A DNA stretch of 64,000 nucleotides from Microthyrium microscopicum (GCA_010405405.1 MU004235.1:882538-946537); one strand, 5' to 3'; shown: positions 15,236 through 56,578, counted from the stretch's first letter. Made by a program: numbers and translations. The notes: generated by a model not told the origin, from the sequence alone.

Positions 15236-15448
15236 AATAAGAGTTTTATAAAGATTTTAAGAATTATTAAAATTATTAAATATCTAAATTTATTATAAGT
15301 AAATACTATATAGGTTTTATTTACTTAATATAAGCTATTAACTTAGAAAAGGTAATTAAGATAATATATTAAGAAAAAATATAATAAACTAAAATATATA
15401 TAAATAAAGAACTAATTAAAATATAAAATAGGCTCTATATATAAACTA

Positions 15449-17152: not shown

Positions 17153-18527
17153 ATTAATAACGTAATAAAAGAAGAAAAAAAGATAGTAGTAAGGTAAAAG
17201 AAGAAAGAAAGATAATAACTAAACTAATATAGATAGATTTATATATCTTATATATATAATATCTATATAGAAAATTAACTTATTACTAACTACTCTTCTA
17301 TACTAAAGCCTTAAAGTCTATAATAACCTTAAAATATAAACCTTAGAGTTTATAATAAACCCTAAACTATTTATATTTATATTTTATTACTTATAAATTA
17401 TTATTTAAGATACTTAAGCCCTTTTCTTATACTACCCTAAAGAATAAAATATCTTAAAATAGGGCTATTTAGTAATTATAATTATAATTTATATTTTTTA
17501 AACTCTAGTTTAGGGTTTTTAGATTTTTAGTTTTTGGTTTTCCTTAATGTTGCTAGGTAGGCCATAATGCGCTTCTATACGCCACTATATCCAGCCTTGC
17601 AATAATAGCGTGCCAGCCTCGTAACCTCACAAGCTAGAATATCAAGTATGAATTTATTGTTTTAAGTAAGTAATTCATTTTTTGGATATATTATGAGCAC
17701 ACAACATAATCTACTCATACTTGCTGAAAACTAAGATCCAATAGGAAATATCATAGTTGGTGGGAGACGAGGACCTCGAGTCCATCGAAACCACTCCTCT
17801 AACTTATTCCAAACTCCAAAGTCTCAAAGGGGGTTCCTTCAATTACTGTATACATCTCTACGCTACTACATAACGTTACCTGTTAGAACATCTCTCCTCA
17901 AAATAATCAAACCTGTCCGCCCCATCGAGTGCTAAACAAAAACATACACATAAAGAGCCGCCAATCTCAAACGCTAACCCACCAGTCATGGCAAACCGCC
18001 CGGGTATCTCATATGTAATCATACCATGTCGCATGCGATCAAAAAAATGGGTGGAAAACTTGATAATACAAAAAATCAGGCGAATATCCCAGTGAGCTGG
18101 GTCAATGCAAATCATGACGTGTGATATCATTTGCTCTCGTTCTGATCATCGTAATTTCGTTAATAAAGAGACAGCCCATATGCCAGTTCCCGGCCCATAA
18201 ACAAGCTTCAAGGTCCCAGCAATGGTGGACGCTTTAAGTACGTGTTGGGCTAACAAAACATACACTAAAGCGGTGGGGAGTAGAGGAGTTGTGGAAAGTA
18301 AAGTGATAGTGGTGGGTGATGTGAGGAGGGAAGGAGGGGAAACATGACATGATGAGATGATGGTGAAATGCCGAAAAGGGGTGGTGCATGGTGTTTGAGG
18401 ATGATAGAGGTCCAACGCCGCTCGTCAGTACAATGAAAATCTGTCCTCGTTGAAGGACACAAGAAGTTCCTTAGCCCGACAGTGGTGATAAGTTTACTTC
18501 TTAACCATCTAGACAAGATGTATACAG

Positions 18528-28520: not shown

Positions 28521-28803
28521 TGGGAATTGCGGCGTAGTGGAAGATGGCGCACAGCGGTTTGCGATTGCGATTGAGGATAGAGGAATTGGAGGGGTTGATA
28601 GAGTATGAGAGATTAGAGCAGTGACGAAATAGTTGACTGGGGATACACAGGGGATCAAAGTTATATTATAAACGGTGGGGATGTGGTCTCCCGTGTCAGA
28701 GGTTGTGGATATTCTGATCAATTTAAACAGTAGAAGCCGTTGGAGAAATGCATTGTTAGCGAAGGGTCTTCGACATGTATGGCTAGAGCTCAGTACTACT
28801 GTA

Positions 28804-28880
28804 CCTCTGCTGCGCGTTCTGTGGTTATACAGGGCAAAATCTGGCCTGTTGATTCAGCTGCAGATCTAGGATCCTGATTA
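28804..28880 (+). repeat. Left terminal inverted repeat of the Tc1-like element
   Basis: cctctgctgcgcgttctgtgg...; the outer 56 bp are identical to the right TIR, near identity runs to about 77 bp, and weaker similarity continues to about 28925. Confidence 0.95.
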
Positions 28881-29059
28881 GGGGAGACCCTAGACTAGAG
28901 GAGTATACTATAGTACAAATTTATATAGTAGCATACTTAGCAGTTCTACATATTACCATAGATAATATATCTTAATATCTAACTTCATAACATTCTTAGT
29001 ATTATTTAAATCCTTAGATCTTGCTCGTTTTAACTAATCTCGTTATCCCGTCTCTTCTT

Positions 29060-30106
29060 ATAATAAATTTAGGTAAGCACCTTACTAAATTCAAATACTA
29101 GCAGGTATAAGATATAATATTATAAGAATACTCTCTTTATAAGATCGCTAAAGCCCTTAAATATTCTTAAACTATTATATAATATTAGCGTAAGAAGCTT
29201 AAAATAACTACTTTATTTAATACTATTAGTATTATTTAATGACGTCCCTTAATTAATTCATTAAAAACTATTGCTTTAGTAGAATATCTTCTATCTAAAT
29301 CTAATTCTATATAATTCGAAATAGCTAATTACTTAACGAACCTATTTAATATAAAGGTTAGCTAAGATTAGGTCTACTACGCGCTAAAGCGTATAAAATA
29401 GACTAAAAAGAGGGTAAGAAATTACTATTATTACTATAGCTTTACTTAATTAATTCTTATTATATTAACTTTAAAATAGTATTATAATATTACTCTTTAA
29501 TAGTCCTTATATCTCTATTAAGAATTCTATATAAAAATAAATAATTACTATCTAGATTAAATTATTTATATTAATAAATATAGTGCAAGGATAAGCTTAT
29601 TAGCCTATAGAATAGAATAGAGCTTAAAAGGTATAGAATACGCTATATTCTTACTACTTTAAAGCTCTAAGAAGTAGAATATACTACTAGTATATACTAT
29701 ATAAGGGATTTTAGTAGTAGATCTATATTAATATAATATAGATAGTAAGGAATTTACCTACTAGTATAAATATAATCTAATTCTAGAGTATTCTACGTTT
29801 TCTGCCCTAAGGAATTCTATTATTATAATAGATAATACGCAGTTCCATTAGGCTATAGATCTAAAGCCTCTTTTTAAGAGTTATAGCATTTAATTAGAGT
29901 TCCTACTACCCTACAGCCTTAATTTTAATCCTATTAAGCAACTATTTAGTAATTTAAAGAAGTAGATTAGATTAAATAATAAGTATTATAAAGAAAGACG
30001 ATAGGAAGAGTAGCTATTTAAGGAGTATCTACGTTTAAGCCTAAGAGAGCTTAATACTAGCTAGTGCGCAATAAAACACTTTCGTAAAAGTAAATTTAAC
30101 ATTTAA
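29060..30106 (+). pseudogene. Tc1/IS630-like DD34E transposase, RIP-inactivated, one intron (about 29414-29479)
   Basis: N-terminal HTH-like segment (EIAEALECSRTTV), YI[D][E] near 29570, MDN.QFH at 29831, FL[P]PYS[P][D]FNPI[E] ending 29938; 34 residues between the second D and the E. Confidence 0.9.
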
Positions 30107-30441
30107 TACTTTATAGTATTTATAGATATCTATCTTATTTAATTTAACTCTCTTCTATATATCTTTTACTATCCTTTTTAGCCTTATTATACTATTCCTT
30201 AACCTAAACGATAAAATACTTTATAGCGTTAATTTTAATATTAGGGTTAATAATAGTAAAGATCCTAATATCTTCCTCTATAGCTACTTAACTAATTCTT
30301 ATATACTTACTTTAATAAACACTTAAAATTAACTTTACTTACTTAAACTAAGATATTTTAATATCTAGACGACTAGATAACTACTCCTTAAATATTACTA
30401 GCTCTTTATCTAGATTAAAAATAATTAAATCTAAGGCTACT

Positions 30442-30801
30442 TATTAAAGATTAGGGTTATAGAGTAGGTAAGAAGGTTATAAGATACTTAATAGATTAGG
30501 TATATAGAAATAGAGATAAGAGTAATTACTAAGGAACTATAAGGAGATTCCTTAGCCTTTATCTTATTACCTAGGAACCTCTAAGGTTCCTCTCTAAGCT
30601 AGAATAGTCTATCTATAAGCTAAGGTACCTTAGAGGTACGTTTAGCTACTAATTATAATAGTTAGGAACCTATTAGTTCTCTTAACTATAAAATATACTA
30701 AAGCTAAAGAAGTAGCTTTATTAGCTTCTAATAGCTATTAAGCTAAGGTACTTAGGCTATAATACCTATCTTAGAGAGTCTATTAGGTTTAATTCCTAAT
30801 A
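30442..30801 (-). repeat. 3' LTR, Gypsy family C
   Basis: Direct repeat of 46535-46894, differing by transitions; PPT adjacent at about 30802-30811. Confidence 0.95.
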
Positions 30802-31501
30802 TTATCTCCTTAATAAGGACCTAAACGTCCTTATAGGTCTCTAAAGGATTAACTACGTTTTAATAGTACTAATATGCTTTAGAATATATTATATTATAAT
30901 AGTATAAACTACTTAGCTACTATCTAGCTAGCTAGATAATAATCTTAGTAAATTCTAGCAAATTTATTATTAGTTTTAAACGTTACTTAAAGGAGTACTC
31001 CTTAAATAATAATTTATAAAGCTAAACGTTACTATTAGGTACTTATTTAGATTTATTTAGGTTTATTAAGGACTTAGGTATTTTTAAGTTTCCTTAGGCT
31101 ATTACCTTAAGCCTATCTAATCCGTAGGTTATTACCTACTAAGGGCGACTTCCTTCTTTAGAATCTTTACCTATAGTAAAAATTAATATTAGAGCTTTCC
31201 TTAATAAGAAGTACTTAATAAAGTAAGTATTTACTCTTTATTAATCTAATTAAGTAGGAGAGTATTAAATAAGGTATATTTAATCTTATAATTACGTACT
31301 TCTTCTAATTCTTTTTTATCCTACTTTTATAGAATTAAGGTATATACCTAAGTAAACTCTAGCTAATTAAGTAAAGCTAATCTTTATAAATAGGGCTATA
31401 ATATAAGAATAAGTCTTAGTTAGTAGTCTTAATATTTTACTAGTAGCTTCTTTATAAATCTACTTAATATACTTTATATCCTTTTGTACTTATTCTCTCT
31501 A

Positions 31502-33137
31502 ATAGCTACTATAAAAGATAAAGTAAGAGCTAATAAGGCTCTAAATAGACCTAGTTTATCTCTATCTAATATCTCTAAGGTCTCTAAGGATACTTTTAAG
31601 GTCTCTAAGAATACTATTACTTTGCTAAAGACTCTAATTGCTAGTATTATAAAACTAGCTAATTCTACTAATACTAATACTACTAAAAAGGTAACTAATA
31701 AGGTTAAATTTATTAATAGTACCTAAATTAATGCTAATAATAATTGTATTAAATTATTAAGTTTAGGCTACTCCTCTTTAGAGCCTTCTAAATTTAAGGA
31801 AATTAAAAAGGATACTACCTAGGCTAAGAAGAAGAGAAAGGCTCCTAAGTATAACTATAATAGTAAATCTAAACCTTCTTAGCCTAACATAAAGTAAATA
31901 TATAATAATAGTATTATATATACTAATAAGGCTTAGGCTTAGTTTAAATTGTACTAGACCTCTTTTATTTATAACGTATTAATTAATTATAGTTAGTTAA
32001 GTAGTAAATATCTTCTATATAACTCTAATAATAATAAGATAAAACTATCTAACGTAGATAAGTCTATTCTATATAAGAATAAGACTAAGTTAATTATTAA
32101 ATAGTTTCTTATACTTAATCTATATTAGTAATATACTAAAGTATATACTAAGACCTTTCTATATACTAATCTAAAGGATTAGTGCTATATAGCTTCTAAG
32201 GATTATATATTAGCCTTTAAGGTTTAAGATAGTTACTACTATATAACTTATAAGACTACTAAGTCCTATTAGTAGTATTTTAAGGTAAGTTATTCCTAAT
32301 TAATTTAATTTAAATCTAATTATTACTAATTATTTTTTAGGTTATTCCTTATAAGAAGAGTATTACTAAGGACCTTCTTTAGAAGCGTTATAATATAATA
32401 AAGGTCTATATACTTTATTAGTAAACCTATAATAGTAATCTAAGTAAGTATAATATAGGTTAGCTCCTTTATATTAAAAAAGTAGTTTATATTACTAATA
32501 AGGACGTTATAAAGACTATCTAGATATAAGTAAACTCTTTTATTATACTTAGGTTTAAACTAATATAAATAAGTATATCTATATTAATACTATAAATAAT
32601 ATCTTTTCTCTATATTCTAGTATTACTAAGAGTAAATATAATAGTATCTATATAATACTAGTATATTATAGAAATAGTAAAAAGGTCTTTATAATTAAGA
32701 AGGCTACCTATTACTCTAAAGTAGCTTTACTTAAAGCTATTATTAGTATTACTTATATTAAGCGCTATAATAACCTCTATGCTTATTATTATAGATTTAA
32801 ATTACTTATAAATAGTAGCTAGGAGGGTATAAGTACTTTAATTATATTACTTAAATTCTAACTAACTCTATTCTAAGTTATAAGTACTTTATTACGTTAA
32901 ATTAGTAATCTTACTAACGTCGTAAAGATACTTACTTCTTAATAAGCTAATAGCGCTAAAAAGAAGGAGAAGGCTTCTAATATAAGTTAGTTTATAACTC
33001 TTTAGAGCTAGATTAATAAGTATAAGCTTAGAATAAATAAGTAGATAGTTCTTTGTTGCTATTTAGTTATAATGAGTTAGATTAATTCTAAGGATAATAA
33101 TTTAGAGTTTAAAGAGTTTAAAGAGTCTAAAGAGTAG
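31502..33137 (+). pseudogene. Antisense, intron-containing extra gene inside Gypsy family C; unknown product
   Basis: Plus-strand frame from ATA (RIP-mutated ATG) at 31502, with only TAA/TAG interruptions; intron gtaagt...ctaat...tag at 32285-32340; acidic end (de-RIP DDDSESEESEESEE*). Confidence 0.7.
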
Positions 33138-33138
33138 A

Positions 33139-33362
33139 TGTAAGGAGCTAACAGGCACAATTAGGTAAGCAGAAAGTAGCTAGTATTATAGGATCTAAGT
33201 ACAAAGAGAAGAGATCTAGAAATATAGCTATAGATATAAAGAAGTAGGAGCCTAGGATATCCTTAGATATACTAACCCTAAATAGGATAAAGAAATCTTA
33301 TCTATAGGATTAGATCTTAGCATCTAAATACTATAATACTAAACCTATAAGGATTTCTTATA
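33139..33362 (-). repeat. 3' LTR, Gypsy family A
   Basis: Direct repeat of 40627-40850; PPT adjacent at about 33365-33377. Confidence 0.95.
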
Positions 33363-36300
33363 TAACTCTCCTCCTCTAAAATAAACCTTATAAGCTATAT
33401 CCTAATCTAATTTATTCTAGTCTAGTCTAAGCTAATCTAGGCTAGGCTAGGCTAGTCTATATAAATACAAAACTTCTTTATATATATTACTACTAAGGAA
33501 TATAGTAATATGCTATCTACTTACCTTAGTACTATCTAAATTTATTTAATAAAAAAAAGAATATCTATTTAAGTTAGTTTATAGTATTCTATAATCCCTT
33601 TAGTAGTATAAATTAAAAACTAAACTAGGGTATAATACTACTAATAAAAATAAATAAATATAATACTTTTTATACTATATAATCTTAATTTATAGGTAGT
33701 CTATTAGCATCATAATCTTCTTCTTTAACTTTATTTATTAGTAAAAACTAAGAAAGGTATAGACTAAGCTTCTAAAGATAAAGCCTATAGAATTCTAATA
33801 TAGTATTAAATATATTAATAATATCCTTCTAGGACTACTAAGTTTTATTATAAAATCCTATCTATTTAATTTTATATTTAAGCACTTTATTCTTACTTCT
33901 ACTATCCTATTTACTATTAATAATAGTATTAATAAGCTATTCTTCTTTACCTTCTTTTTTATTAATAACTACTAGAAGTAAGTTTAATTCCTATAATAAG
34001 TATATATTATTATTAATTAGATATAGTAGCTAGACATAGAATACTAAGTATATCTTTATTAATTTAAAAAGATCTAATTTATAAGTTACTCTATTAATTT
34101 TGCACAATACCTTAAAGGGACTAGTACTTTTACTATTAAGTATTTTTAAAAGATAAGTTATATTATAATTTTAAACGTTAAGTTATACCTAGTCTCTAGA
34201 ATAGAGATCTAGTACTAGACGTTAATACTTATTAATATAGAGCTTTTATTAAGCCTAAGCCTATACTAATTACTCTTTTAAGAACTTATAAAGCTTCTCT
34301 TAACTATTCTATACTTAATTAGTAGTAATAACTTCTTTACGCACTATAATAGAAGCATATAACGCTTTAGGTAGTAAATAGTAAGTAGACTTAAGTCCTA
34401 ATTTTAGTAGAAAACTATTTTATGCCTTAAAAAGTATAAAACTAGTAGTAGTACTTATAGTAAAATTTACTACAAATTTAATAAATAGTAATAGGGCTAC
34501 CTAATTATTCTAATCCTAATTAATAAAGAATCTAAGATACTATTTTAAGGTAGTAATAGTTATTTTAATAATACTATTAGACTCTAGATACTATATAGTA
34601 CTTAATCTTAATATAATGCCTATACATTCACATAGGCAACCCTAAAAGGTAAATATAAATTAAGTTCCCTAATCTAAAAGGATAGAGTCTAGCTAACTAT
34701 ATAGCTTCTATACTTAATTAATAAATACTATAACTATTATTTCTACTAAAAGACTTAGGAGGATAATAAACTATTATAATTATATTAAATAATTAATAAT
34801 AACTATAATATACTAGTAAACTATACCCTAATAGGTATAGCATAGTAATAAGATAGCAAAGTCTATAAAGATATTAAACTAGGCCTAATCTAGTAAAGAA
34901 AATAAGCAAAGAAGCCTTTACTTTTTTTAGCGTACTAGCTTTAAAAAGATATAGTAATAACCTTTAATATATTTCTTAATATATTCTAACATTCTTAGCT
35001 ACTAGTAATCTTATTAAAGGTAGTAGTAGGTTATTATAGTTCCTCTATAGCTTATAACTTTATATTAATACGCCTATTTTATTACTTTATTTTATAAATA
35101 TATTATTAGTATAAATAACTTTTATTAATAAAGGATAGTACTATTTAGCAAAGCCTTATAATCTATTAATTTAATTTAATCTTAATCTAGCACTCTAAAG
35201 GGCAAGAAGTAGTCTTTCTATGCCTTTACTAGTTAAATTATAATTAGTAACTTATCTTTCTTACTTACCTTTATTACTTCCTATATAAACTACTCTAAGT
35301 TAAAATCTAGGGATTTAGTATTAACTAGTAGTAAATTATCTAAACTAGCTAGAGCTCTATTTTAAGAGCTCCTTATAATAGGTTCTAAATTAGACTCTCC
35401 TACTATAGTAATATTTAGCTTATCTAACGTAAGCATAGCTATCTATATAAAAAATAAGGTAATTAGGTTAATAAGGATTATAGCTAGCTTAATAGCTTAT
35501 TTAGTGCTAAATTAATACAAAAATAGAAGTAGTTAATACTATTACTTAACCTATAAGTCTTTATTACTTTATAGTACGTCTTATAATCTTTAGGTTAAAG
35601 TATTAGCTTTACTATTATCCTTACTAAGGTGGTATTTAATTAAAAAGTAGAATTATAATAGAAATTTAGCCTAGCGTATTTAATAGCATATAAGCTTCTT
35701 AGTCTTTATAAAGGTTTAAAAATTCTAATAATCTAAGAACACTTTTATAATATCTTTAGTACTAAATAACTTAGGTTCTTACTCTTTAAAGGCGTAGATA
35801 ATAGCAAGTAGTTCTTTATTATAAATATTATAATTATATTTCACTAGTAATATTTTCTTAGAGAGAAAAGTAACTAGTCTTAGATTACTATTTATATCTT
35901 TTTATAATAATATAGTAGTATAAGCCTAATCTAATACGTCTATTTCTATCTAAGTTTCCTTAGTATAATTAAAGTATTATAGAATTAGTATACTAGTAAA
36001 GTCTACTTTTAGCTTCTTAAAAGCTTATTCCTTAGGCCTATTAGGGTTCTAGGGAAATATAGTTAAAGTATTCTTCTAAGTAAAATTTATTAATAGTGTA
36101 GCTATAGTAGAGTAATTAAAGATAAATCATTAGTAGAAGTTAGTAAATCTAAGGAATACTTATATATCTTTAAGATAACTTAGTTATTCCTAGTTAACTA
36201 TAGTATTAACCTTTAAAAAGTCTATCTTAATACTTTCTATAGTAATAATTAGACTAAGGTATTTTACCTCTTAGATAGTAAACTCTAACTTCTTAATATT

Positions 36301-39300
36301 AAGAAATAAGCCTATACGTTCTAATACGTCTAGTACTAAATATATATAGGTATTATATTCTTCTAGTATCTTACTAAATACTAGAATATTATCTAAATAA
36401 ATAGTTATAAAATTATCTAAAAACTATATTAGTATATAATTAATATACGCTTAAAATGTCCCTAGTCCCCTTATAAGGCTAAAGGGTAGTACTTTAAACT
36501 TAAATAGGCTATAGTATATTAAGAATGCTATTTTATATTTATCTCTAAGTTTAATATAAATGCATTTAAAAGTAATAATAACGTTAAACTTAGAGTAATA
36601 CTTTACCTTTATAAAGTATATAAGCGTCTTACTAATAAGTAGTAGAATGTTACTATTTTTAATAGTAATATTATTTAACCTATAGTAATTAATATAGACA
36701 TAGATGCCTCTTTCTAGCTTACTTACGTAAAATATAGATATAGTATATTAAGATTTTAAACCTATAGCAAAACTGTGCTAAAGTAGACTCTTAATATATT
36801 ATTTAATAACTAAGGCTTATTTTAGTAATATTAATACAAATTAGCGTTTTAGAATTTTAACGTTAAGGACAAAGTTAATAGTATAGTTATATTTACTATA
36901 ATAAGACGTAAGGATATTTAAACGCTTTAAATTAAAGACTTTAAAATATTAGTAAAAATATTTTAGAATAAGTTTTAAAATCTCTTCTTTTAATAAGTAA
37001 GAGTAATCTTACTTATTTTACTATTTAAGATAATCTTCCTCTAATATAGCATATATAGTAAGGTTTATAGTAAATCTATTATTATTATCTTTATTATTAT
37101 TAGAAGGTTTCTTTTCTTTTTTATTATTAAAATCTTTAGACTAGAATATATTAACTATAGCGTCTTTACGCTTTATTAGTTTCTTAAACGCTACTATAGA
37201 TATAAAAGCAATATCTAATTCTTTAAGTAATTCTAAGTTTATAGATTATCCTTTTAGGTCTATAGTAATTAGGCGTTATAATATAATATAATTTATAATA
37301 TATCTTATATTATAGAAGGTTAATATTCTTAAACCTCTATATAGGTCAACTTTATATTAATCTAGCTAGGGTACTCTTAGGATTAGATCATAAGAAGCTA
37401 CTTTTATAACAAAATAGCTAATCTACTTAACGTAGCATCTAATATGTAGGTTAAGGATAATAGCTTTATTAACTATAGATACTAACTTACTATTAGTAAG
37501 TATTACTAAGTATAAATATATAAGTTAAAAAGTAGGAATACTATATTATTAAAGATAATAAGGGTTAATAATTCCTATTACGCTACTATTAGTATTAATT
37601 AAAATACTAGTATTAGAGTAAGTTAAATGCTATAGCATAAATACTAAGCTAATAGTAGTCTATTATAATCTAATAATAAGATCTTTCTTTTTAATATCTT
37701 AAGACTATACTACTAGTATAATAGAGGCTAGTAAAATATAGATAGCGTATAAATATACTAAGAAGATACGTCTCTTATAAATAGCATCTTTATACTTAAG
37801 GCGCTAAATATACTAGTAAAGGTAGCTAAGTATTTTCTTAGTCTTTTCTTAAGCTTTTTCTTTAATATTCTTATAGTCTTCTTCTACTTAATAAAATATC
37901 TCCTTAGCTTTCTTAGTATTTTAGTACTATTCCTTATTATATTAATAGAATATTTCCTTTACGCGCTTAGTTATAGCATTAAAAGCGCGTTTCTTTCTTT
38001 TATTATATACTTTAGTCTTATTTAGCTCCTCTTTACAACTTAGTAAAGGAGCGTCTAGTTTAAAGACTAATAATTATTATCCTTAATAATATCCTCTATA
38101 GAGGATTACTATTCTTTTTAAACTTTTATAAATATTATTACTAAAGGTATAACTAAGGCTTTAATCTTATTATTAGATAAAGGTTCCTAATCTTTATATA
38201 GAGTAGTCTTATTAAAGTAGTAGTAACCCTTTTAACTATAATAAACGTAACGTTTGTCTATTTTTAAGGCGTTAAAGACGTCTATAGAATAGTTAACATT
38301 ACTAGCTTTATTATTTTAGGCCCCCTTATTAGTAGACTAATTATTATTATAGCTATAAGAGTTATTATTTATAGTAATAAGCTTATAGTTAATTTAGTAT
38401 ATAACTAAGTAAAGTTAAGTATAAAATATAACAAAGCTACTAAAATACTAGCCTACTAGTAAGTCTATAAACTTATAGTTAATAAGATCTTATAATTTAA
38501 TAATCTTCTTATACTTAAATAGTTCTATATCTACTAAATTTATTAAAAAGTAGCTAATAAAGGCTTAAAGACTTTCTATATCTTTTATCTTAGTATTTAA
38601 GAACTTTAGCTATACCTTAGTATCTTTAAAAGCGTTCTTAGAGTAATAATATCTATCTAGGTTTACCTATATCTTTTCTATAGTATAATAAGGGTCCTTT
38701 AACTTATAACCTTTATATATAACTATAATACTATAGGCAAGGCTAGTATAATAGATATAGATAAACTTAATTTTCTTCTTCTTAGTAGAGACGTAAAGGT
38801 ATATATTCTTATTAAGAAATATATCTAATATTTTCTCCTTCTACTATTTATAGTACGTAAGTTTACCTTTAAAATTACTAGGTTCTTTAAACTTTATAAG
38901 TATTACTAGAGAGCTACTATTAGCTATTAATAATAGCAAGATATAACGTATTTTTTAAGCTTAGAGCTATAGATATAAAACTACTAAATATATTACTTAT
39001 AGTATAAAGCGACCTAATAAAAAGTTATCCTCTAAATCCTTTAGATTAATATAGGCTTAATTTAAATTTATCTAAAGTTTATCCTTAAGCTCTTAGATTT
39101 AGTAGTAAAGGTTAATAACTAACTCACAATACTATAAATTAGTATTACGTTTCTTTACTAGTTTAGTAAGAGCTACCTATTTATTTAAATAAGTAATAGT
39201 TAGTACTAGCTTATAGTTATAGCAAATTTAACTAGTAAGCGCTTTAAGATTTATTATTATTTACTAATAAGTAGCTACCTCTTCCTATAGTACTTCTACT

Positions 39301-40626
39301 AATTTACTTAGTTAACCTATTTCTATATTAGCATCTATAAGTTCTCCTATTAGCTAATCTTAAAGTTTTTAAGTAGACTAGTAATATAATACTATAGTTT
39401 AATTAATTACTAATATAGTATATAGTTATTTAAAGAATTAATCTTCTTCTATAAACTTAATATATTAGTCTAGATGCTTACTATTAGATATTAATATATA
39501 ATGTTTCTAAAGAGTAGTAAAATTATTAGGATTATCTTAAAGAACTATTAATATTTACTTCTCTACCTTTAGTCTTACTCTATATAATACCTATATAAAT
39601 AAAGGCTTTATGCTAGTAAGTAATATAACTTTACTATTAAGGTTTACTAGTTCTAAGGGTAAGTAAGGTAAGAACGACATAAGAACGTTATAAGGTTCTT
39701 TTTTATATACTAGTAATTCTAACTAATAGTAGATATTAATAAGTAATCTTACTTCTAACGCGCTTTTATCTAGACTACTAACAATAGTACTAGAAGTTAC
39801 TACTTCTTTACTTTTTAATCCTAGCTCTTTTATTATGCTTGCTAGCATAATAAATGCTATAATTAATAATCTAGCAATGATCTTATAAGGTTATTAAATA
39901 TTAATACTAACTTAAGTATTTTAATAAAGAAATTCCTTATCTTTATTATCTAAAGCTACTTTAGGTAATAGAGGTAACTTTTTAATAGACTTAACTACTA
40001 AGATACTCTCTTGCTATAGCGTTAACATAACAATAGACTATTAATTAGTTCCTACATCTAGGACAACTAGCTTCTTAGCAAAATAGCTATCTCTACTATA
40101 GTAAGATAAAACTAAATAGCTTTAAATACTAACGCTACTATACTTATAGGCAATATAAGAGTTACTTAATGCTAGTTTAAGACTAGAAATAAGTAGCGCC
40201 TTACTTATAGTAATATATAGCTAAAATAATACGATATTTCTTAATAAATTAGAACTAATTTAATAGAATAATAGATATAGATTTAATAAGGAATAAGGTA
40301 AGAGTATTTATAGTTAGTAAAAAAGAAGTAGTATAAACGCCTTTATGGATTTAAGAAGAATACTATAAGGCAAAGCTTAGGCTTCTAAGTAGTCTTTATT
40401 CTAGCAAATAATGCTAAATTTATATTACTCTAGTTAATATTTATAAATTTACTAGTACCTTTAGTAACGCTAATCCTAATTAAGGATAGTATTACTAAAT
40501 ACTAATTAGTTAGATCTATAGTATAACTATAATTAAGATAGGAATTAATAAACGCTTCTACGCGTTTATTAATAATGCGTAAATTTATATATAGAGTATA
40601 AATTTAGTATAGAGGTACTTAGATTA

Positions 40627-40850
40627 TATAAGGAGCTAATAGGCACGATTAAGTGAATAGAAAGTAGCTAGTATTATAGGATCTAAGTACGGAGAGAAGA
40701 GATCTAGAAATATAGTTATAGATACAAAGAAGTAGGAGCCTAGGATATCCTTAGATACACTAATCCTAAATAGGATAAAGAGATCTTATCTATAGGATTA
40801 GATCTTAGCATCTAAATACTATAATACTAAACCTATAAGGATTCCTCATA
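40627..40850 (-). repeat. 5' LTR, Gypsy family A
   Basis: Direct repeat of 33139-33362; followed by TSD gtaga. Confidence 0.95.
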
Positions 40851-43800: not shown

Positions 43801-46534
43801 ACTTTCTTACTTAGTATATATTTTATAGTATTAGCTAATCTATAACTATTATAATCTATTCTAGTTCTATTATAGTACTATTTAAAGTTATAATATACCT
43901 AAGGTACTTAGTTTAGTCTATATAGAAGCTATACTTTAATAGCTTAGCGTATAACTTAAACTTAATAAGTCTTTTAAGTATCTTCTTTATATATTTAATA
44001 TAATCTTCTTTATTCTTAAAGAAGATAAGAATATTATTAAGGTAGATAATATAAGTTACGTTAATAAGGCTATATAGAGCTTAGTTAATATATACTTAGA
44101 AAGTAGTAAAAGCGTTAATAAGTCTAAAGAGCATTACTTAGTACTTAAAAGACCTATATTTAGTTTAGAATACTATCTTTTACTTATTACTAGTATAAAT
44201 ATAAATATAATAGTATACTTTATAAAGGTCTAGGCTTATAAAGAGCTTAGCTCTTAATAGTTAGTCTAATAACTTTTTAATTAGTAGTAAAGTATAATAG
44301 TCCTTAACTATAATATTATTTAAGCCTCTATAGTTTATATATAGACGTAAGGTACTATCCTTCTTCTTTATAAAGATAATTAAGGCTTTAGTAAGAGACT
44401 AAGATTTATAAATAAATCTCCTCTTAAGATTTCTCTTAAGGTATTTGCATAGAATGACTAGTTTTACTTTTAATAGGCTATAAATAAGCTAATAAAGTAT
44501 ACTTATACCTAGCTTAAGGTTAATAGCTAGGTTCTATAAACTATATTTTACTAAATCCTATACTTTATCTTTACTAAAAGCTTTTATAAGCTCTTTATAG
44601 TAATATAGTAAGTCTTATAGGCTAATATAGTCTAATAAACCTACTAGATACTTAAAGAGCTAAGTAGATTTATCTTAACTTAATTAGAGTAACTCTTCTA
44701 AGAAGATAAAGCTAATTTTACTATAATAGTTATTTTTTAGATAAATAAAAGATAAAGTCTTAGCCTTAAAGTCTAGTAAAGAGTTCTAGTTCTTAAGCTA
44801 GGGTATCTTTATAATAATTATATAGTATAGTAAGTTTATAATATAAAATAATACTTTATTAGTCTTTAAGATTTTATTAAAGTTAATTACTATAACTTTA
44901 GTAGTTACTACCTTATAGATAGCTATAGGCATACTATTTAGGTACTTAGCTAACTTTTTTAGAAGATAATATATCTTTAATTAAAGCTTCTTAGCTAAGG
45001 CGTAGTCTATAATATTAAAATAGGCTCTACTATCTATTATTATACTCTATAATGTATAATCTTAGTTTACTTAATTCTAAGTAGTCCCTTATAGGATAAT
45101 TTAGTATAATTTCTTTAATTAGTATACCTTCTTATCTAGAATCCTTTTATTTTTTACTACTTCTAGAACTTAAGTAATAATAACCTTATAGAAGTTACTA
45201 AGAAGGTTAAGGACTAGATTATTCGTAATAGAAGTTATAAGATCCTAGTTAGCTACTTTATAGCTTAGTCTTTTTCTTTAATTCTTTTTAGCTTTAGGTT
45301 AGGGTAGTTATAGGCTATATAGCCTACTTTAGTATAGTTCTAGCACTTGCCTTTACTAGGGTTACTAAGGAATAGCTATTTAACTTTAGGCATTATATTA
45401 CTCTTTAGTTTATTTAGCTTTAAAGCCTTATTAGAAAGGCTTAGTCTAGACTTTTTTAACTTATTTCTCTAGTAATCTTATTAAGTCTTATCCTCTAGAT
45501 TTATAGATATTAAACGCTATTTAGAGAATTTACTATCCTTAGTATCTTTCTTAAGAGTAGTTAGTATCTTCTAGTTACTAATAGATCTTAAGTACTTTAA
45601 AATATATTAAGATAAGACTTCTTTAGCTATCTTAACTATATAGTCTAAGTTAAAGATTATATTATTTCTAAGGCGAGTAGATAGTTTATTACTAAAGAAT
45701 AATAAGTAAATTAATATATTATTAATTTTATACTTATAAAAGAAAGGCATAAGCTTATTAAAGTATTCTTAGGAAGTCTTTTCCTCTATTATAGTAGTTA
45801 AGAGGCTCTAAAAGGCTTTATAACGCCTCTTAATAAGTAAACTAAGGAGTTTAAAGGCCTACTATTCTATAAAGGCCTATATAGATTTATATTAGTCTAG
45901 TTTAGCTAGCTAGGTTTAAAAATTAACGTAATTATCCTAGGTTAGTTATATAACCTCTTTATTAAGATAATTATAGGCTTAAAGAATTACTAGGTATAGG
46001 TCCTCTTTATATTTCTTTATAGTAAGTATATTAGTTATATTAAAGACTTAATCCTTATACTCTTATAGACTTTTAGCTTTATATATTTATAGTTTATTAC
46101 TATTATAAGCTAATTTAGAGCTATTATATTTAATATAGGCTAAAATAGCTAGGCTAGCGTTATATTAACCTTATTTATTAATCTATTTAACTAAGTAGAG
46201 TTCTCTATATTTATAGGCTACTTTTATTGCTTTAAGTTATTTAATTTTAAGCATATTATATATTTACTATATTTTAGCTTATAGTTATTTTAGCGTCTCT
46301 TTTATATTTACTACTAGTTCTAAATAGGCTTATTCTATATTAATAGAGTTGTCTATAGAGCTACTTAGTCCTACTAGGGTTAGTATAGCTATATCTAGTA
46401 TAACTAAATTTAGTCTAGCTAGTTTTACTCTAGGGGCCTTATTCTTAGGTTTTATTAGTTTATTACTTATAACTAATTGTAGTATTTTAAAGGAAAAGCT
46501 TTATAGGTACTTTATTAGTAAGAAGTAATTATAA

Positions 46535-46894
46535 TATTAGAGATTAGGATTATAGAGTAAATAAGAAGGTTATAAGATACTTAATAAATTAAGTATATAG
46601 AAATAGGAATAAGAGTAATTACTAAGAAACTATAAAGGGATTCCTTAGCCTTTATCTTATTACCTAGGAACTTCTAAGGTTCTTTTCTAAGCTAGAATAG
46701 TCTATTTATAAGCTAAGGTACTTTAGAGGTACGCTTAGCTACTAATTATAATAATTAGGAACCTATTAGTTCTCTTAACTATAGAATATATTAAAGCTAA
46801 AGAAGTAGCTCTACTAGCTTCTAATAGCTATTAGGCTAAGGTACTTAGGCCATAATGCCTATCTTAGAGAGTCTATTAGGTTTAATTCCTAATA
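46535..46894 (-). repeat. 5' LTR, Gypsy family C
   Basis: Direct repeat of 30442-30801; followed by TSD ctact. Confidence 0.95.
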
Positions 46895-47522
46895 CTACTA
46901 GTAGTAGAGGGCTACTAGTAGGAATTTTAACGTTTAAGGTTACTATAGTATCTACTACTAGCACTTTACTACTAGTAGCTATAGTGGCCTAAATATCTAC
47001 TAGCGTAAAGCTAAAATATAGATTATTACTATTAAAGTGCCCTAAATTATTAGAATTATTCTTATCTCTACTACTATGCTTACTCCTAGAATAAGTATTC
47101 TTATTAAACTATTTACTAGTAGTAAAGCTAAAGATATCTATTAGAATCTTATCTAGAGGCTATAAATTAAAAGCTTCGTAAAGGGCTATAAGTCTAATAA
47201 TCTTACTCTAATAGCGTAGTACTAAAAGTTAAATTACTATATATTTCTTACTTATTCTAAGGATATAATAATGCCCTTAAACCTTTAAAGAGGGACATAA
47301 CTCTTTATAGTAGCTATATTTATTAAAAAGAGTAGCATAAGTATTAGTATAATTATAAGTTTAATTCTCTTTAATAATAGTATTAATTAGAGTAGTATCT
47401 ATATCCTTCTATTATTCCTAAAGTTCTTCTACTATTACTAATAATTTAGGGCCTTCTTTAGCTTTATTTACTAACTATAATATCTCTTACTCTAGCATTA
47501 CTTATTTAATTATTTTAGAAAA

Positions 47523-47724
47523 TGTTAGGGACTTATAGGCGCAAGAGTATAAGCTAATAGTAGATATAATTTAAGAAAACTAATACGAAGAATCTAAGAG
47601 AGAGGGTAGGGAATAGTTATAGGTAAGCTATACTAGATAATCCTTAGGCGCTAAGCCCTTAGCATTATATAATAGAGGATACTAATAATATTATAATAGA
47701 ATTAATAGTAGTAGATTTATAATA
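47523..47724 (-). repeat. 3' LTR, Gypsy family D
   Basis: Direct repeat of 54731-54932; begins tgtt. Confidence 0.94.
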
Positions 47725-50700
47725 ATACTCTCTTCTCTAAGATTAGTGCTCCTAAGCTAAAAACTTATAAAAGGATAAGATTTATAATTAAGTTATACGG
47801 TCTTATAATTCTAATGCTTTTAGGGTATAAAATATAAAATATAAAAAGTAAAGATAATATTCTTCCTTTATATATAACTACTATATGTACTTATTCCTTA
47901 TGCTACCCTTTAGCTTGCTAAAGCAATTATTAAGAGGTATTAATAAACCTTAAAATATCTTTAGAATACTCTAGTTTATAAACTAAGTATTAAGGTACGC
48001 ATAGTAGTATTCTTTACTATTTTAGGAAAAGTTTATCTAAATTATACTCCTTCTTTTTTTTCTTTTAAGGGTCTATAAACGTAGGATATAGCCCTAGTTT
48101 ATTAGGGTTCTAGTTATAGTACTTAGTAATAAGCTTTAGATAGAAGTTAAGATTTAACTATAGTTACTAATTAAGATTATAGTTTTAGTCGTCCTATCTT
48201 ATAAACTAGACTTTATACTATAAAACCTTCTTCTTACTAAAGCCTTTTATAATACCTATCTTACTATTAATAACGTAGTTAACTACCTATTTTTACTCTA
48301 TATTATTATCTATATTTATAATTATAAAGAAGTTATCTAATTTTTAAAGTATAGTAGTATATTTAAGAATAAAGTAGAGTAGCTAAGTATAGAAGATAAG
48401 GTAAATCTTTATCTTCTTTAGTAGTTCTAGCTTATAAGTAAGAATATTAATCTTCTTAATAATCTTAAAGAGTTCTATAGATTTATTATTAAGGAATTTT
48501 AATAGTTAGAAAGATTTATAATAATAAGCATTAAGGCGTACTTAATTACCTAGTTTAAGGTCTAGTACTAGTTAATAAGTCTTATTAGCCTATTCTTTTA
48601 TAAAAGTAGTAGACTATAAGATTTATTCTTAGAGATACTTATAAAGGTTAGTATAGGTATAGAAATATTAGTTAGTAAGTTGCTATTTAGTTTAGGTTAG
48701 CTTAGTTCTTAAGTAGGCTTTTAGAGGTATTAGTTCTAATCCTAATTAAGGAAAATAACTATTAAGTACGTAGAAGGGACTTATCTTAGTAGAGGCGTAG
48801 ATAGCGTAGTTAGCTTTAAACTTAGTAAATAGTAGTAGTTCTACCTAGTTATTCTATTACTAGTTAATAAAGTATCTAAGGTAAGCTTTTAGTACTATAA
48901 CTAATATTTCTATAATGCTATTACTTTATAGGTACTAAGTAGTAGTTAGGTAGATAATAATACTAATACGTTTATAGAGGCGTTACTAAAATATAGACGT
49001 AAATTATAAATTATAGTTAGAGAGAATAAAGTTAAGCTATCTAGTATATTTCTAGATTTAGTTAAGAAATATAAGAACTATTATCTATACGCTTAAGTTA
49101 GGAAGGGGTATAAATTATTAGGTACGTATTAGCTTATCTATAATAACTATAATATAATAGTAAATAGTTCTAAGGTAAATATAAAGTAGTAAAGTAACTA
49201 TAAAGTTAATAGAGATATTAGACTAGGCGTAGTTAGATAGTAGGAATAACTAGAAAAGACCTTACTTCTTTTATTTAACTAGCTTAGAAAATGCATACTT
49301 ATATATTTTTATATAGTACTTTATATCTTTAGCTATATAAAGCTAATAGTAGAATTAATAAAGGCGCTAGTATATAGAAGCTATACTATTATAACCTATT
49401 ACCTTATAATTATATATATATTTAATAGCGTAGTATTAGAAACGTTCTATAGAGATAAGGAGTTATTATTTATACTAAATAGTATTATTAGTAAGTACTT
49501 AATAATTACTAAGTTTAATTAAGTCTTTTTCTAAGGTACTATATAGTAGGTAATATAACTATATAGCTTTAGAGTTGTAGATTACTTAGATAAGCTTATT
49601 TAATTAGCTAGCCTTAATAATATCTTTTTATAATATCTTTAGGTTAGTTAGCATACTATCTATCCTAGGGTAATTAATTAGCTTACCTAAGATTAGAGTA
49701 GAACTCTCTATAATTAGTTAATTAATTAGCTTACCTTCTATAGTTAGTACGTTAACTTTATTAGTAATAATTATAGCAAGTTTAATTATTATAAGTTATT
49801 TACTATTAATAAGAAGGATAGTAATTTTAATAGTATATTAAGTATTATAAGAGTAAGAAATCTTATAGTAGATATTAAAGTTATAAAGAGAAAGAATTAA
49901 TTATATTTATTAGGCAATCTATAGATTATTATTAAATTTTAGAAAATCTTATAATCTTTAAGTTAGTATATCTACTTTTACGTTAAAGGAATTATTATAA
50001 TATTTAATCTTAAACTAGAATTAGAAGAGGAACTCTACTTATTAAGCTTAATAGTGAAATAGCTTTTTAGTTAATATAAAAGTACGTAAGTTAAGGTAAT
50101 TAGTAAAAACTTATATAGAGTTAAAAATTAAAAATAATTTAGGTTTCTATTCCTTAAATACCTATATAATTATAAGTAGCTCTTTATTATAAATATTATA
50201 ATTATACTTTACTAAGGTTATCTTTTTAGAAAGGAAAGCTACTAGATAAAGCTTACTATTTATACCTTTCTAAGAAAGAATAGCTACTACTACCTAGTCT
50301 AAAGTATTAATTTTAACTTAAGTCTTAGTATTAGGATTAAAGTAATAAAGAATTAAAGTAGTAGTAAAGGCCTTCTTTAAGGCATTAAAAGCTTATTCTT
50401 TAGGTCTAGTCTTACTCTATAGGAAGTATAAGGAAGTATTCTTTTTAGTTAGCGTAATAAGTAGTATAATAATTTTTAAGTATTCTTTAATAAAATAATA
50501 ATAGAAGTTTATAAAGCTAAGAAATATTTAGATATCCTTTAGAGAAGTAGAGTAGTACTAGTTAAGTATAGCATTAACCTTCTTCTTATCTATTTAAATC
50601 CTATTAAGTATAATAATAATACTAAGATATTTAACTAATTAAGTTATAAACTTAGATTTAGAAATATCTAGGTAGAGTCTAGCTTTTTTAAGCTTATTAA

Positions 50701-53700
50701 GAATTAAGTAGATATAAGTAATATACTTCTCTTTAATCTTACTCTAAATAAGGACGTTATTAAGGTAGACTATAATAAAGTTATTAAGGTATTTACGTAC
50801 TATGCTATTAATATAAGATTAAAAGCTTCCTAATAATTTTATTATACTAAATAGTATTACTAAGGTTTTAAAGAGTTTATAGCGTATTAAGAATATAGTC
50901 TTATACTTATTTTTTTTATAAATTTAGATATTATTAAAAATAGTAATAATATTAAATTATAAAAAGAATTTTACCTTATAGATCTTTATTAAAGTTTCTA
51001 TTAAGAGTAAGGGTATATTTTAGTTAGTTAGTATAATCTTATTAAGTCTATAGTAATTAACGTAGATATAAATACTATTACCTAGTTTACTAATATATAA
51101 TATAAGTATAGCGTAATAGGAGGTACTTAGTTAAATAAAGCTTTTTCTAAATATATTCTTAATATATTTCTTAATAACTTATACTTATTAGTAAAATATA
51201 CTATAAGATTTACGTATAAGTACTTTTATATTTAGGTTAGTAGTAATAGTATAGTTAAAGCCTAGTTAGTATAGTAGTAGCTTATTAACTTAGTAAAGAT
51301 TAAATAAGAGAATATAGTAATAGAACTCTAATAGTATTAACTTTAGTAATTCTTTTTATATTAATAAATTATAGTTAAGCTTCTTATGCTATTTAGTATA
51401 GTTTTTAGTAAAGATTATAATAATGCTAATAACGTTTCACTAAGGGATAGGGTTAGGGTCTTCTTTCTCTTCTAAGGTATTAAAGTCTTCTTAGTAGAGA
51501 GCTATAAAGTAGTAATCTTTGTGTTATATTATAGCTATAAAGACTTATAGTAATACTATATAGATATTAGGAGTTCCTTTTTATTATTTATTTATAACTA
51601 CTTAACCCTTATAGTTAATACTAGTAGTTATTAGGTAATAAGAAGCTATATAGTATTTTATATAATGCTTAGAGTAGAAGCCTAATATATATTAGCTTCC
51701 TTAGAGTATAACTTTATACTTATTTACCTATAGGTTGCTAAGGATTATATTATAGTTAGTAATTTCTATTATAAAGCAAAGAATCTATTTAAGGTAGATA
51801 CTAATATATAATATAATAGCTACTATATAGGTTATCTTTATAATAGCGTAGTTATTAGCTATTTTAACGTAATAGAGTTAGGTTATCTCTACTAATAAAA
51901 TATTATAAATTTAGAGGTAATAAGGGTTAATAATACTAAAGATACTACTACTTATATTAATTAGAACTTTTGTTTTAGCGTATACGTTATTATTAATAAG
52001 AATATTACTAGCGATACTCTATTATTAGCCTATTTTTAAAATAGAATATTTTAGTAATTAGTTAATAGGGATATAGGCTATTAATATATATATAATGGCT
52101 ATGCCTATAAAGTTACTTTTAGTTTTAGAGTTACTTAGGTAGTTAATAATAGCCTCTATCTAACGTTTTTATTATTTATTATATGCTTCTATTTTATTTA
52201 GCTTCTTTATATAGCGTTACGAAGAAGCGTCTAGTTTCCTTAGTCTTAGTAATAATAATTACTATATATTAATAAGTAATTATTTAGTAGAGTTAGGTTT
52301 TATACTTAAGTATTATTTTATTACGAATAAATACTAGTAAGTTTAGTAGTAATATTAGAATTAGAAAGGGCTAGCTTATCTTTATACTTTAAATTCTTAT
52401 CTTTATAGTTATAACCTCGTTCATTATATTAGGTATAGTAGTAGTCTTATATAAGATATTAATATAGAGTAGTCTTATAACGTAGTATATAATTAATTTA
52501 GTTATTAGTTTAGTTACTATTATTATTATTCTAATTACTAAATAGCTTATTATTATTATTAGTCTTACGTTTAAGGTTTTAGTTAATAACTTATAATTTA
52601 TTAATATACTTAGTAATAGTAGTAGCTTTTAAAAGAAATAGATACTATATAATTTCTTTAATAATTATATATTTAAAGTAAGTAATCTTATTTACTTTTA
52701 TAAGGCTAGCATTAGTAATTTTGCTATTAAACTTAGTAATATATAAAGTAAGCTTCTTAGTCTTCTTTATTTAGTTTAAGGAATTTTATAACTAGGTAAT
52801 AGCATCTTTATAAGTATTATATTTTTAGGTATATTAATCTAGATCTTTTTAAAACTCTATTATATTAGAGTATAAGTTTAGTAATTTATATTAAGTATAG
52901 TCTTTAATAAACCTAAGGATAATATTAAGAGTCTTATTACGTACCTAAATAGTAGCGTCTAGTTTTATAGGGAATAAGGCTTACTTATTATAAAGATAGT
53001 CTTTAACGTAGAGCTTCTATATAAGGTATTACTTAGAATTATAACTAGAGTATTTACTTAGATTACTCTATTTATATTTTTTGCTTTTACTACTAGCTAA
53101 GGATCTAGATACTACTAGAGTTAGGCTATTAGTTTAAATATAAGGGATTTATTAATAAAGAGGAGGTATTACTTATTCGTTATTAGAGTTAAGTTAGTAG
53201 ATATTCTCTTTAGACTTATATATAAATTAACTAAGCTAGTTCTTAAGATCTTTATTCTAAAGGTAAAAAGCTATAATCTTATTATGCTTCTTAATATAGA
53301 AAGTACGTAGTTATTTAATATTATTAAGTGCTTTATTAAGTTCTTATTAATTTGTATTATAAGTATTCTCTAGATAGAGGACGCGTTTATTATTCTTACG
53401 ATTAGCTTTAATTACGCAGTTAAGTTATTAATAAAGTTAATTTGCTTTCTTATATTATTTATTAGCTATAGCTATAGTATTATTAAGTTTTTTAGTTATA
53501 TCTTTAATCTCCTATTTATAGTATTAACTTACGTTTATTATATTATTTAGCTAGGCGTAGGTTTCTTAAGTATAGAGATTAGCTACTTATATTAATTTAA
53601 TATAGCTATATAGCTATTTAAACTAAAGTTCTAGTAATATTATAATACTATAAAGGAAACCTTTATAAATCTTAATAACTTCTAAGTATAAATTGCTCTA

Positions 53701-54730
53701 AGTATAATATATAAGTATAGGGTCTAGAGAAACGCTCTTAATAATACTATTTAGAGGAATAGTTTCTTAAGCTTAGAAGGTAACTTCTTTATAAAGGAGT
53801 TATATAGAGGATACTTAAGTCTCTTTATTAGGAGTAATTAACTAGTAGGTAATAAAATAAGAGAATATTTAGTAGTTTAATAGTAACTCTTTAATCTAGG
53901 CTTAGTTTACTAGTTAAAGAGTAGTAATTAGAAGATCTATAGAAGATGTCTTTTCTTTACCTTTAGTTTAGAATTATAACTAGTTATAAATATAGCTACT
54001 CTTAGTAATTTCTAGGATATTAAATAGTAAAGGTACTTTAATAATAAAATTACAATAAGAGTATAAAGAATTATAGCGTAAAAAGTAACTATAAAGTAGT
54101 TTTATAGTAGCGTTTTCTTTGTTACTATTAATCTAGATATAAGGTTATATAATTATAAACTAAGTAGTATTCTAAGTCTCTAATTATTATTACTTATAAA
54201 GATAGAATATAGAGTAAGTCTTATAAGCCTTAATAGTATCTTCTATAGTAAGATAAGGGTTTAATACTAAGTAAGTATAAGTAATAGGTATAAGCGCTAA
54301 GAAGTTTTAAGATAAAGTATAGATAGGTTATAAAGGTATAATAAGTAATTTAAAGAAAAGAGTAGGTAGTCTAATTTGTTATAGTTTATCTTTAAGGCTT
54401 ATTATAGTATAGCAAGATAAGTAAAGTCTTATTATAGGTATAGTAGTAGAGAGAAGTAGTAGTAGTAAAAGATTATTAACTTATAAGTCTAGTAGAGTAG
54501 AAGTTCTAAGTTAATTAAGGTCCTTTAATCCCTTTAATTAAACACTAGGAGTCTAAGCTTCTAATAAGATTAAGGATTAGGAATTTATATATTTACTACG
54601 CTAGTAGGTTAAATCTACTAAGATCTAAAAATAGGATTCTATATTTATATAAGTAGACATATTAAATCTTTAGATTTTAATATACTAAAAATTAGAATTA
54701 TTTTTTAAATAGTATAAGGTATTAGTTTTA

Positions 54731-54932
54731 TATTAGGAACCTATAGGCGCAAGAGTATAAGCTAATAGTAGATATAATTTAAGAAAACTAATATAAAGAA
54801 TCTAAGAGAGAGAGTAGGGAATAGTTATAGGTAAGCTACGCTAAATAATCCTTAGGCGCTAAGCCCTTAGCATTACGTAATAGGGGATGCCAATAATGTT
54901 ACAATAGGATTAATAGTAGTAGATTTATAATA
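54731..54932 (-). repeat. 5' LTR, Gypsy family D
   Basis: Direct repeat of 47523-47724. Confidence 0.94.
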
Positions 54933-55931
54933 GAAGATATCTCTAAAAAGATATTAAAGTATTTCTTAATCTTTACTAGTTAGTATTTAATATTTAGCCC
55001 CTCTTCCTTAAATATAAATAGCATTATAGGATTTTTAGTAGTTCTATTAATAGGAAGCTAAAGATAGGTCTAAATTAACGTTATAGAGCCTATTAGATAA
55101 CGTTATTCTCTAGCTTAAGTAGCTTTTTATTAAAGAGCTTCTTTCTAACTATTAGCAAGGGTAGTATATACTTCTAAAGTAGTTTTATTTAGTTATACTT
55201 TATTTCCTTTCTTCTTAATATTATATTTTACTATCTTATAGTAAATAATTAGTAATAGCTTACTATTAATTTAAATAGGCCTATTTAAACTACCCTCTAG
55301 TTATAATAGTAGTACTAGGATCTAAGATTCTATTAACTTATTAAATCTAGGCTATTAAGATCTCTAGCTAGCGTTTACCCTATTATCTATCTTTTCTATA
55401 TAGCTAATTAAAGAGCTAAGAATCATCGTTAAAGAGCTAGGATTTTGGCTTTATATTTAGCTCTTCGTAAGTATCTAGAAGATACAAAGATCTTAAGATA
55501 CTATAAGAGCTATTCCTAGAAGAATAGTATTATTTTAGCTTATTTTACCTATAATTTAGATAGGTATATTTGCTATTATCTTAAGTATTAATATTCTAAT
55601 CTTCTTTCTATAGGTAGAGCGTTAAGTAGCGTTAGGATTAATTTCTACTAATATAAAACATTTATTTAATATAATTATAAAGAATAACGACAATAAGGGT
55701 ATTTACTAATAATTTAATAGGAATATAGCTCTTTTAGGCTTTTAAACGACATAAAGATTAATTAATTATAATATATCCTTAGCGAGGAATTCCTACTCTA
55801 AAATCTATATTTTTAGCCTATCTTTAGATTACTAGGAAATACTATAAAACTAGCATTGCTTTATAGCTACCAATAGTCTAATCATATATAAATCTACATA
55901 CTAACGCACTCCTTAATCCCGTTATACGATC

Positions 55932-56007
55932 CAATCAGATCCTAGATCTGTAGCTGAATCAACAGGCCAGATTTTGCCCTGTATAACCACAGAACGCGCA
56001 GCAGAGG
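55932..56007 (-). repeat. Right terminal inverted repeat of the Tc1-like element
   Basis: Reverse complement of 28804-28880; followed by TA. Confidence 0.95.
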
Positions 56008-56578
56008 TACTTGAAATGCAGGCAAGCAGTGGTAGTGGCAGGTTGCATGGTCCAAAAGTCTCGACTTCCCTTCCTTTCCCTACTAATCCTGTGGAGAAGC
56101 AGTGGCAGAGCAAGAGATGGTCATGCTAATGGTCAAATGGTCTTGATAATTCAGCCTTGAATCAAATAGTTGCATTGGGAACCCCTCTTGAGTCTGCCTT
56201 TCTGCAAGCGCATCAAGACTAGAGCAGCTTTAATGCTTTGAATACTCTGCACGTAAAAGGCAACTCTCGTGGTCCGCATCGTCGTTTATAGCCAATTGGG
56301 AAGTCACTGGGGGTTGGTGATTTCAGGAGAGATGGATTAATATTGAACTGAACTGAAATCTAAAGGGGTCGCGAGATACAGCTGATGGAATAAATAGAGG
56401 CACGGAGTAGAGAAAAGAAGGGATGGCTGCTGCCACTGCGGAGCTGTGCTGGGAGCGTTTGTCCACATGTCGCTTAAGCCTTCCTATTTGGGGTCCAGCG
56501 AACTCAACACCAAAGCGCTCCAGATATTGCTATCGGTCTGTCTAGTCCACAACCATGATCTGATGATTAGTGTCGCCA

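Follow-up and report, generated by a model that had tools for sequence, protein, structure and literature searches.

The AT-rich locus described here raises the question of what kind of genetic unit underlies a large block in the genome of Microthyrium microscopicum, and whether a second reading frame in this block is a genuine part of that unit. In the window, i.e. the whole stretch of 64,000 nucleotides that was analysed, the GC content drops from about 0.47 to 0.21-0.27 between 29 and 56 kb, and the block is bordered by ordinary fungal genes, namely kinases to its left and, to its right, genes for a histidine phosphatase and an MFS transporter. Its ends are formed by 70-bp inverted repeats that are identical in 69 of 70 bases, with TA on the outside of each (28802-28803 and 56008-56009), in agreement with an earlier note on this DNA that had claimed matching terminal inverted repeats (TIRs) 27 kb apart with TA flanks. 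The join of 28804-30441, 46900-47522 and 54938-56007 amounts to 3,331 bp, so that the coordinates and the length of about 3331 bp that the note had given after removal of the insertions proved exact; the three pieces are colinear with adjoining segments of copies that occur without interruption at other places in the 37-Mb genome, and their junctions consist of 5-bp target duplications (CTACT/CTACT and GAAAA/GAAGA). The further claim that the whole 27-kb island is one element holds for the outer bounds, whereas the element proper makes up just 12% of the 27.2-kb block. It is practically certain that the block represents one dead 3.3-kb cut-and-paste transposon enlarged by three inner retrotransposons, with the following features:

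28802..28803, no strand: left TA target-site duplication; TA stands beside every full copy examined
28804..28873, plus strand: left TIR, 70 bp, starting CCTCTG, 69/70 identical to the right one
29066..30106, plus strand: RIP-inactivated DDE_3 transposase; start uncertain, at about 29045-29069
29414..29479, plus strand: probable 66-bp transposase intron, GTAAG...TAG after a KKR motif
30144..30441, minus strand: ORF2 3' piece, helical C-terminal domain; stop at 30144-30146, alternative at 30135-30137
30442..46899, no strand: LTR retroelement A plus duplicated CTACT; 360-bp LTRs at 30442-30801 and 46535-46894; contains element B
33139..40850, no strand: LTR retroelement B, nested in A; LTRs of about 225 bp (33139/40626), GTAGA duplication
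46900..47522, minus strand: ORF2 middle piece; motif C-x4-C-P-x7-C-x8-H-x10-W at 47312-47208, partly inferred through RIP
47523..54937, no strand: LTR retroelement C plus duplicated GAAAA/GAAGA; 202-bp LTRs (47523/54731)
54938..55672, minus strand: ORF2 5' piece, basic N-terminus; start codon position 55672
55938..56007, minus strand: right TIR
56008..56009, no strand: right TA target-site duplication

Each of the three LTR pairs inside the block is accompanied by a 5-bp duplication, and all differences between paired LTRs are transitions (58/58 over the three pairs, 25/25 in retroelement A). The insertions had been called Gypsy elements; their LTR pairs and 5-bp duplications identify them as LTR retroelements, and the Gypsy assignment corresponds to a single weak RVT_1 match, obtained with just one of three insert pieces tested and falling short of the cut-off (E 0.002). 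Retroelement B matches window positions 1-3833 in inverted orientation at 91-93%. Positions 1-17500 constitute a second AT-rich RIP block that includes a diverged repeat at 3.4-kb spacing. The RIP indices of the element are typical (TpA/ApT 1.55-1.65), and both of its genes, the transposase gene and ORF2, are wrecked by RIP, which acted after at least insertion C, because the duplication of C differs by one G-to-A change. The proposed history begins with the insertion of a 3.3-kb IS630-Tc1-mariner (ITm) element into a TA that separates two host genes. This element would later have received three LTR retroelements, two in ORF2 (A and C) and one within A (B), and RIP would then have killed the whole assembly. 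With respect to the left neighbour, a spliced contig from a presumed-RNA sequencing run (window 27800-28830) represents a minus-strand kinase gene with three CT..AC joints. It extends upstream to 28830, within the left TIR, and roughly 285 bp separate the element from the probable start codon; the element may thus lie in, or supply, the leader of the kinase gene, contigs being unable to show a start. The transposase region was barely covered by the same run, which is uninformative on expression.

The plus-strand frame matches the DDE_3 family PF13358 with 32.9 bits (cut-off 28.6, E 6.9e-8). Its catalytic positions in the window copy are 29573 (D, reads N), 29831 (D) and 29936 (E, reads K), with 34 residues from the second D to the E position. 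The first D is present in four and the second D in five of eight copies, and the E codon is AAG in all eight; the DD34E transposase of the earlier note accordingly stands as far as the DDE_3 match and the 34-residue spacing are concerned, while we infer the glutamate itself from an AAG that is compatible with RIP. Transversion-variable columns are distributed 33/18/65 over the three codon positions. The stretch at 29414-29479, with identical donor and acceptor in eight copies, is probably an intron, since related families change frame at that place. A search for homologues of the transposase, blunted by RIP damage, yielded only three matches, all distant and without context. The TA duplication, the TIRs and the DDE_3 transposase assign the element to the IS630-Tc1-mariner superfamily, within which it departs from the canonical one-gene Tc1/mariner design (a single ORF, 1.3-2.4 kb).

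ORF2 lies on the minus strand and extends over 551 codons, starting at 55672 and ending with the stop at 30144-30146; it is convergent with the transposase gene. The stop codons of both genes (30144-30146 and 30104-30106) are separated by 37 bp, precisely as previously claimed; that of ORF2 is possibly RIP-made, and the next stop common to all eight copies (30135-30137) would reduce the gap to 28 bp. The start codon is ATG in two of the eight copies and ATA in six. The description of ORF2 as RIP-mutated and split into three was likewise correct, with 42 stops in the window copy and three pieces between the LTR insertions. Transversion columns and indel phase are signals that RIP cannot mimic. 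Small indels are multiples of three in 8/8 cases within ORF2 and in 0/11 gap entries outside both ORFs, and the transversion-variable columns number 78/60/118 by codon position (551 each, p 3e-5). The synonymous share amounts to 0.36 both for the frame of ORF2 and for its antisense mirror, as compared with 0.12-0.17 for the four remaining frames; substitutions are most conservative in the ORF2 frame, the mirror frame having much worse scores (-1.24 versus -0.28). The constraint on ORF2 is weaker than that on the transposase, for which the synonymous share is 0.57. Each of the Cys3-His ligands of ORF2 is directly visible in 0-2 of the eight close copies, the remainder being RIP-compatible. An N-terminal pattern, R-x-x-L-x-[DE]-[IL]-x-x-N, is present in the close and the distant 3.3-kb copies, and this pattern may resemble a destruction box.

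Eight close copies, including that in the window, carry TIRs and TA flanks at different sites and can be divided into four subfamilies that are 3.6-8.9% apart by transversions. The differences between the window copy and the C7 copy are all transitions, and regional differences among the copies suggest recombination between subfamilies. Three distant 3.3-kb elements have related ends and have kept the layout, with identities of about 45% in the transposase and 27-29% in ORF2. TA is found on both sides of the window copy and of ten other full copies. In a genome-wide census, the end motif was matched 71 times, as against three times for a reversed control. Some of these matches remain unpaired; the others make up 11 pairs of full-size length, 18 short ones (190-292 bp), single pairs spanning 1,031 bp and 45 kb, and a spurious pairing. 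ORF2 is present in all 11 full-size elements with this end type, and the 71 matches include no pair spaced 1.3-2.4 kb apart, the length of a transposase-only element. All 15 ORF2 matches detected in the genome by a protein search scoring best candidates only lie within these 11 elements, with no host copy among them, and ORF2 has neither termini nor a target-site duplication of its own, its sole breaks being the LTR insertions. An intact copy of the element was not found in the genome.

The short TIR pairs of the census are miniatures (18 of 190-292 bp, at L039:562-849 and 17 further sites, and a single one of 1,031 bp; L055) that have only the ends in common with full elements, about 140 bp per end in the case of L039; their GC content is normal, and they seem to have escaped RIP. 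The ORF2 of another copy is interrupted by a small TRIM-like LTR element, a 1,062-bp insertion (L035:2982-4043) with a GC content of 43%, direct repeats of 207 bp and a 5-bp duplication. The 45-kb pair delimits an AT-rich block (C5:1034991-1079956) with an identical 20-bp end motif and TA flanks. In the outer 5.5 kb read on each side, similarity to the element was detected only at the ends, and none of the listed DDE_3 matches falls in this block; it may be a further TIR element of the clan that insertions have enlarged.

The genome contains 24 other DDE_3 matches, 20 of which were examined. Fourteen are close to this transposase, and all 14 are accompanied by a convergent ORF2; they comprise a 4.0-kb family with CAGTG ends (nine loci) and a 3.7-kb family with CACCC/CACTG ends (five loci), and TIR pairs were found for 11 of the 14. 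The other six loci, which resemble this transposase weakly or not at all, gave no ORF2 match. Among them, L162, L167 and L168 lie in GC-normal DNA and show weak transposase similarity; they represent older relics or another lineage. Altogether, all 25 copies with a closely related transposase, which represent three end types, have kept ORF2, and the proposal of a two-gene Tc1-like family is supported by the 11 copies and the 14 close relatives with other ends, all positive evidence on this family coming from one genome. Profiles of the 3.3-kb and 4.0-kb ORF2, built from RIP-aware readings, matched each other reciprocally in 7/7 and 8/8 copies, in the right frame only and with E values of 1e-5 to 7e-10, no reversed control falling below E 0.4; unreconstructed profiles gave E 2e-9 and 5e-7 for two of nine copies. 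Both families share the Cys3-His motif. The 4.0-kb ORF2 shows transversion columns of 76/51/115 (p 2.5e-6) and in-frame gaps only. The 3.7-kb ORF2 is tied to the others by the motif spacing, which across families is C-x4-C-P-x6/7-C-x6/8-H-x10-W, and by weak scores (E 6e-4 for one copy, E 0.5-1), and its alignment contains frame-breaking gaps. Trees of the transposase (22 rows) and of ORF2 (18 rows) recovered the identical three family clades with unresolved deeper forks; both consist of copies from this genome only, and three groups are too few to show co-divergence. The least RIP-damaged two-gene element found, a member of the 4.0-kb family (L169:1985-5976, GC 0.36), carries the most readable ORF2 in the genome.

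Database searches were conducted with queries that had suffered from RIP. ORF2 gave no homologue outside this genome among 1.84 billion representatives (HMMER), a weak test in view of the RIP damage, and none in a set of 5.8 billion sequences, neither with an alignment query nor with the least damaged 4.0-kb copy, both likewise RIP-blunted. The equally blunted comparison with Pfam assigned no family (best E 0.025-0.09, short of the cut-off), nine RIP-damaged readings did not match PF08946, and phage records gave no match. Scans for the TIR pattern returned 10 viral and 94 metagenome matches, all of them single and none resembling either ORF. Structure predictions, with pLDDT values of 36 and 52, were uninformative, and fold searches returned background only. 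A SAM-like tail considered for ORF2 found no support in them (pLDDT 52, pTM 0.32, best Z 6.1 to unrelated helical chains).

A second gene facing the transposase is unusual for a normally one-gene class, yet a precedent has been published. The available text of PMC4188875 describes canonical Tc1/mariner elements as having a single ORF and a length of 1.3-2.4 kb; a two-ORF element is nevertheless in print (PMC3538342), a point absent from the earlier note, as is the intron-like stretch of the transposase. According to the accessible part of that paper (Manning et al. 2013), a 3.4-kb Tc1/Mariner element of Pyrenophora tritici-repentis has a second ORF in 46 copies, interpreted as gene capture ("Osmo-CC transduplication") on a PF08946 match, and a similar ORF pair was noted in Alternaria. 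Like ours, the Pyrenophora element has TIRs, is of about this length and in many of its copies contains a complete second ORF. In a comparison made by description, it differs in the PF08946 match, which our ORF2 did not show (a weak test), and our ORF2 is constrained and common to families with different ends. With canonical Tc1/mariner the element shares the TA duplication, the TIRs, the DDE_3 match, the 34-residue spacing up to the presumed E position and miniature derivatives, and it differs in its 3.3-kb length, the second convergent gene and ends starting CCTCTG or TCTCTG. Dici1 and Dici2 of Diutina catenulata, as far as described in the available text of PMC13469147, contain three CDSs with a central transposase of 473-477 aa and a transposase relic as CDS3. 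They, too, are fungal ITm elements, of the DD34E type, that duplicate TA, have further coding sequences under selection and are accompanied by MITEs, but they have three CDSs, CAGTCGGT ends and a yeast host, in contrast to two ORFs and an ORF2 without a DDE_3 match here. The ciliate TBE and Tec elements are DD34E elements with extra genes, including a zinc-finger ORF in TBE (available part of PMC7325037); they have three ORFs and ciliate hosts, and the likeness is by description only. The available portions of PMC5751038, PMC2836289, PMC3441728, PMC4210507 and PMC4112212 contain nothing on a second ORF. Apart from the 2013 report, our search of the freely accessible literature (Repbase and subscription journals excluded) turned up no publication describing a convergent accessory gene family as a conserved feature of fungal Tc1 elements.

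With a probability of roughly 0.9, the comparison of copies identifies ORF2 as a selected, old and co-inherited gene and not as a one-off capture. That it is non-coding and merely looks open, or that the antisense frame is the true one, is scarcely credible: the 42 stops of the window copy and the tie of the mirror frame on synonymous share are points in favour, but the indel phase, the ATG in two of eight copies, the substitution scores and the cross-family homology in one frame only contradict it. Hardly more plausible is a degenerate second transposase, for which CDS3 of the Dici elements provides a precedent (available text of PMC13469147), as ORF2 has no DDE or helix-turn-helix match whereas the equally damaged ORF1 matches DDE_3, and the transposase profile did not match the ORF2 regions. 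Passively carried host cargo acquired by transduplication would correspond to the wording used for the Pyrenophora element in the available part of PMC3538342 and to the faster divergence of ORF2 relative to the transposase; this explanation is improbable in the face of frame and codon constraint between subfamilies, retention in all 25 close copies with three end types, and 15 ORF2 matches that include no host copy.

A separate matter is whose fitness a selected ORF2 would serve, on which purifying selection is silent. ORF2 might benefit the host or be an independent selfish factor, e.g. of a meiotic-drive or incompatibility type, that rides the transposon. The miniatures, which have no ORF2 of their own, did move; a helper could, however, have acted on them in trans. 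We consider this rather unlikely, since the fixed convergent position with a gap of less than 40 bp and the retention of ORF2 in all three end-type families suit an element-level role, and ORF2 matched no Pfam family (a weak test). A helper function for the element is the role that we favour for ORF2, as a probable one.

The element moved as a unit, both of its genes are under coding constraint, and they are inherited together; movement of the unit by the transposase follows from the separate TA flanks of the copies. The DD34E transposase, made from the left end, would have recognised the TIRs and carried the whole unit into TA sites, and would also have mobilised the 190-292-bp miniatures with matching ends; both activities are established for this superfamily. 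ORF2 would have been read from the right end toward the transposase to give a protein of about 550 residues, held under purifying selection through splits deep enough to alter the TIR sequence. This product was most likely zinc-binding (Cys3-His) and nuclear, and as a helper it might have assisted transposition as a cofactor or protected the element from silencing by the host. MuDR (mudrA/mudrB) and PIF/Harbinger elements combine a transposase with a helper gene, the MuDR genes being convergent; they belong to other superfamilies with other target duplications, and the analogy is functional only. As a tentative generalization, somewhat short of an even chance, an ITm lineage of filamentous fungi may be widespread and obligately two-gene, with a so far undescribed Cys3-His protein family that has accompanied the transposases from before the divergence of the ends and serves as a transposition cofactor or in anti-silencing.

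Retention of a second gene under selection across families with different ends implies a helper function that has so far gone unrecognised, and the "gene capture" reported from fungi may be reinterpreted as a possible core part of the element. The finding also accounts for a class of large RIP-blackened blocks, in which a small element has served as a site of nested insertions. Should the helper counteract silencing, it would offer a handle on transposon survival under fungal genome defence, and if the two-gene lineage is real, its Cys3-His family would play among ITm elements the part that the helper genes play in MuDR and Harbinger.
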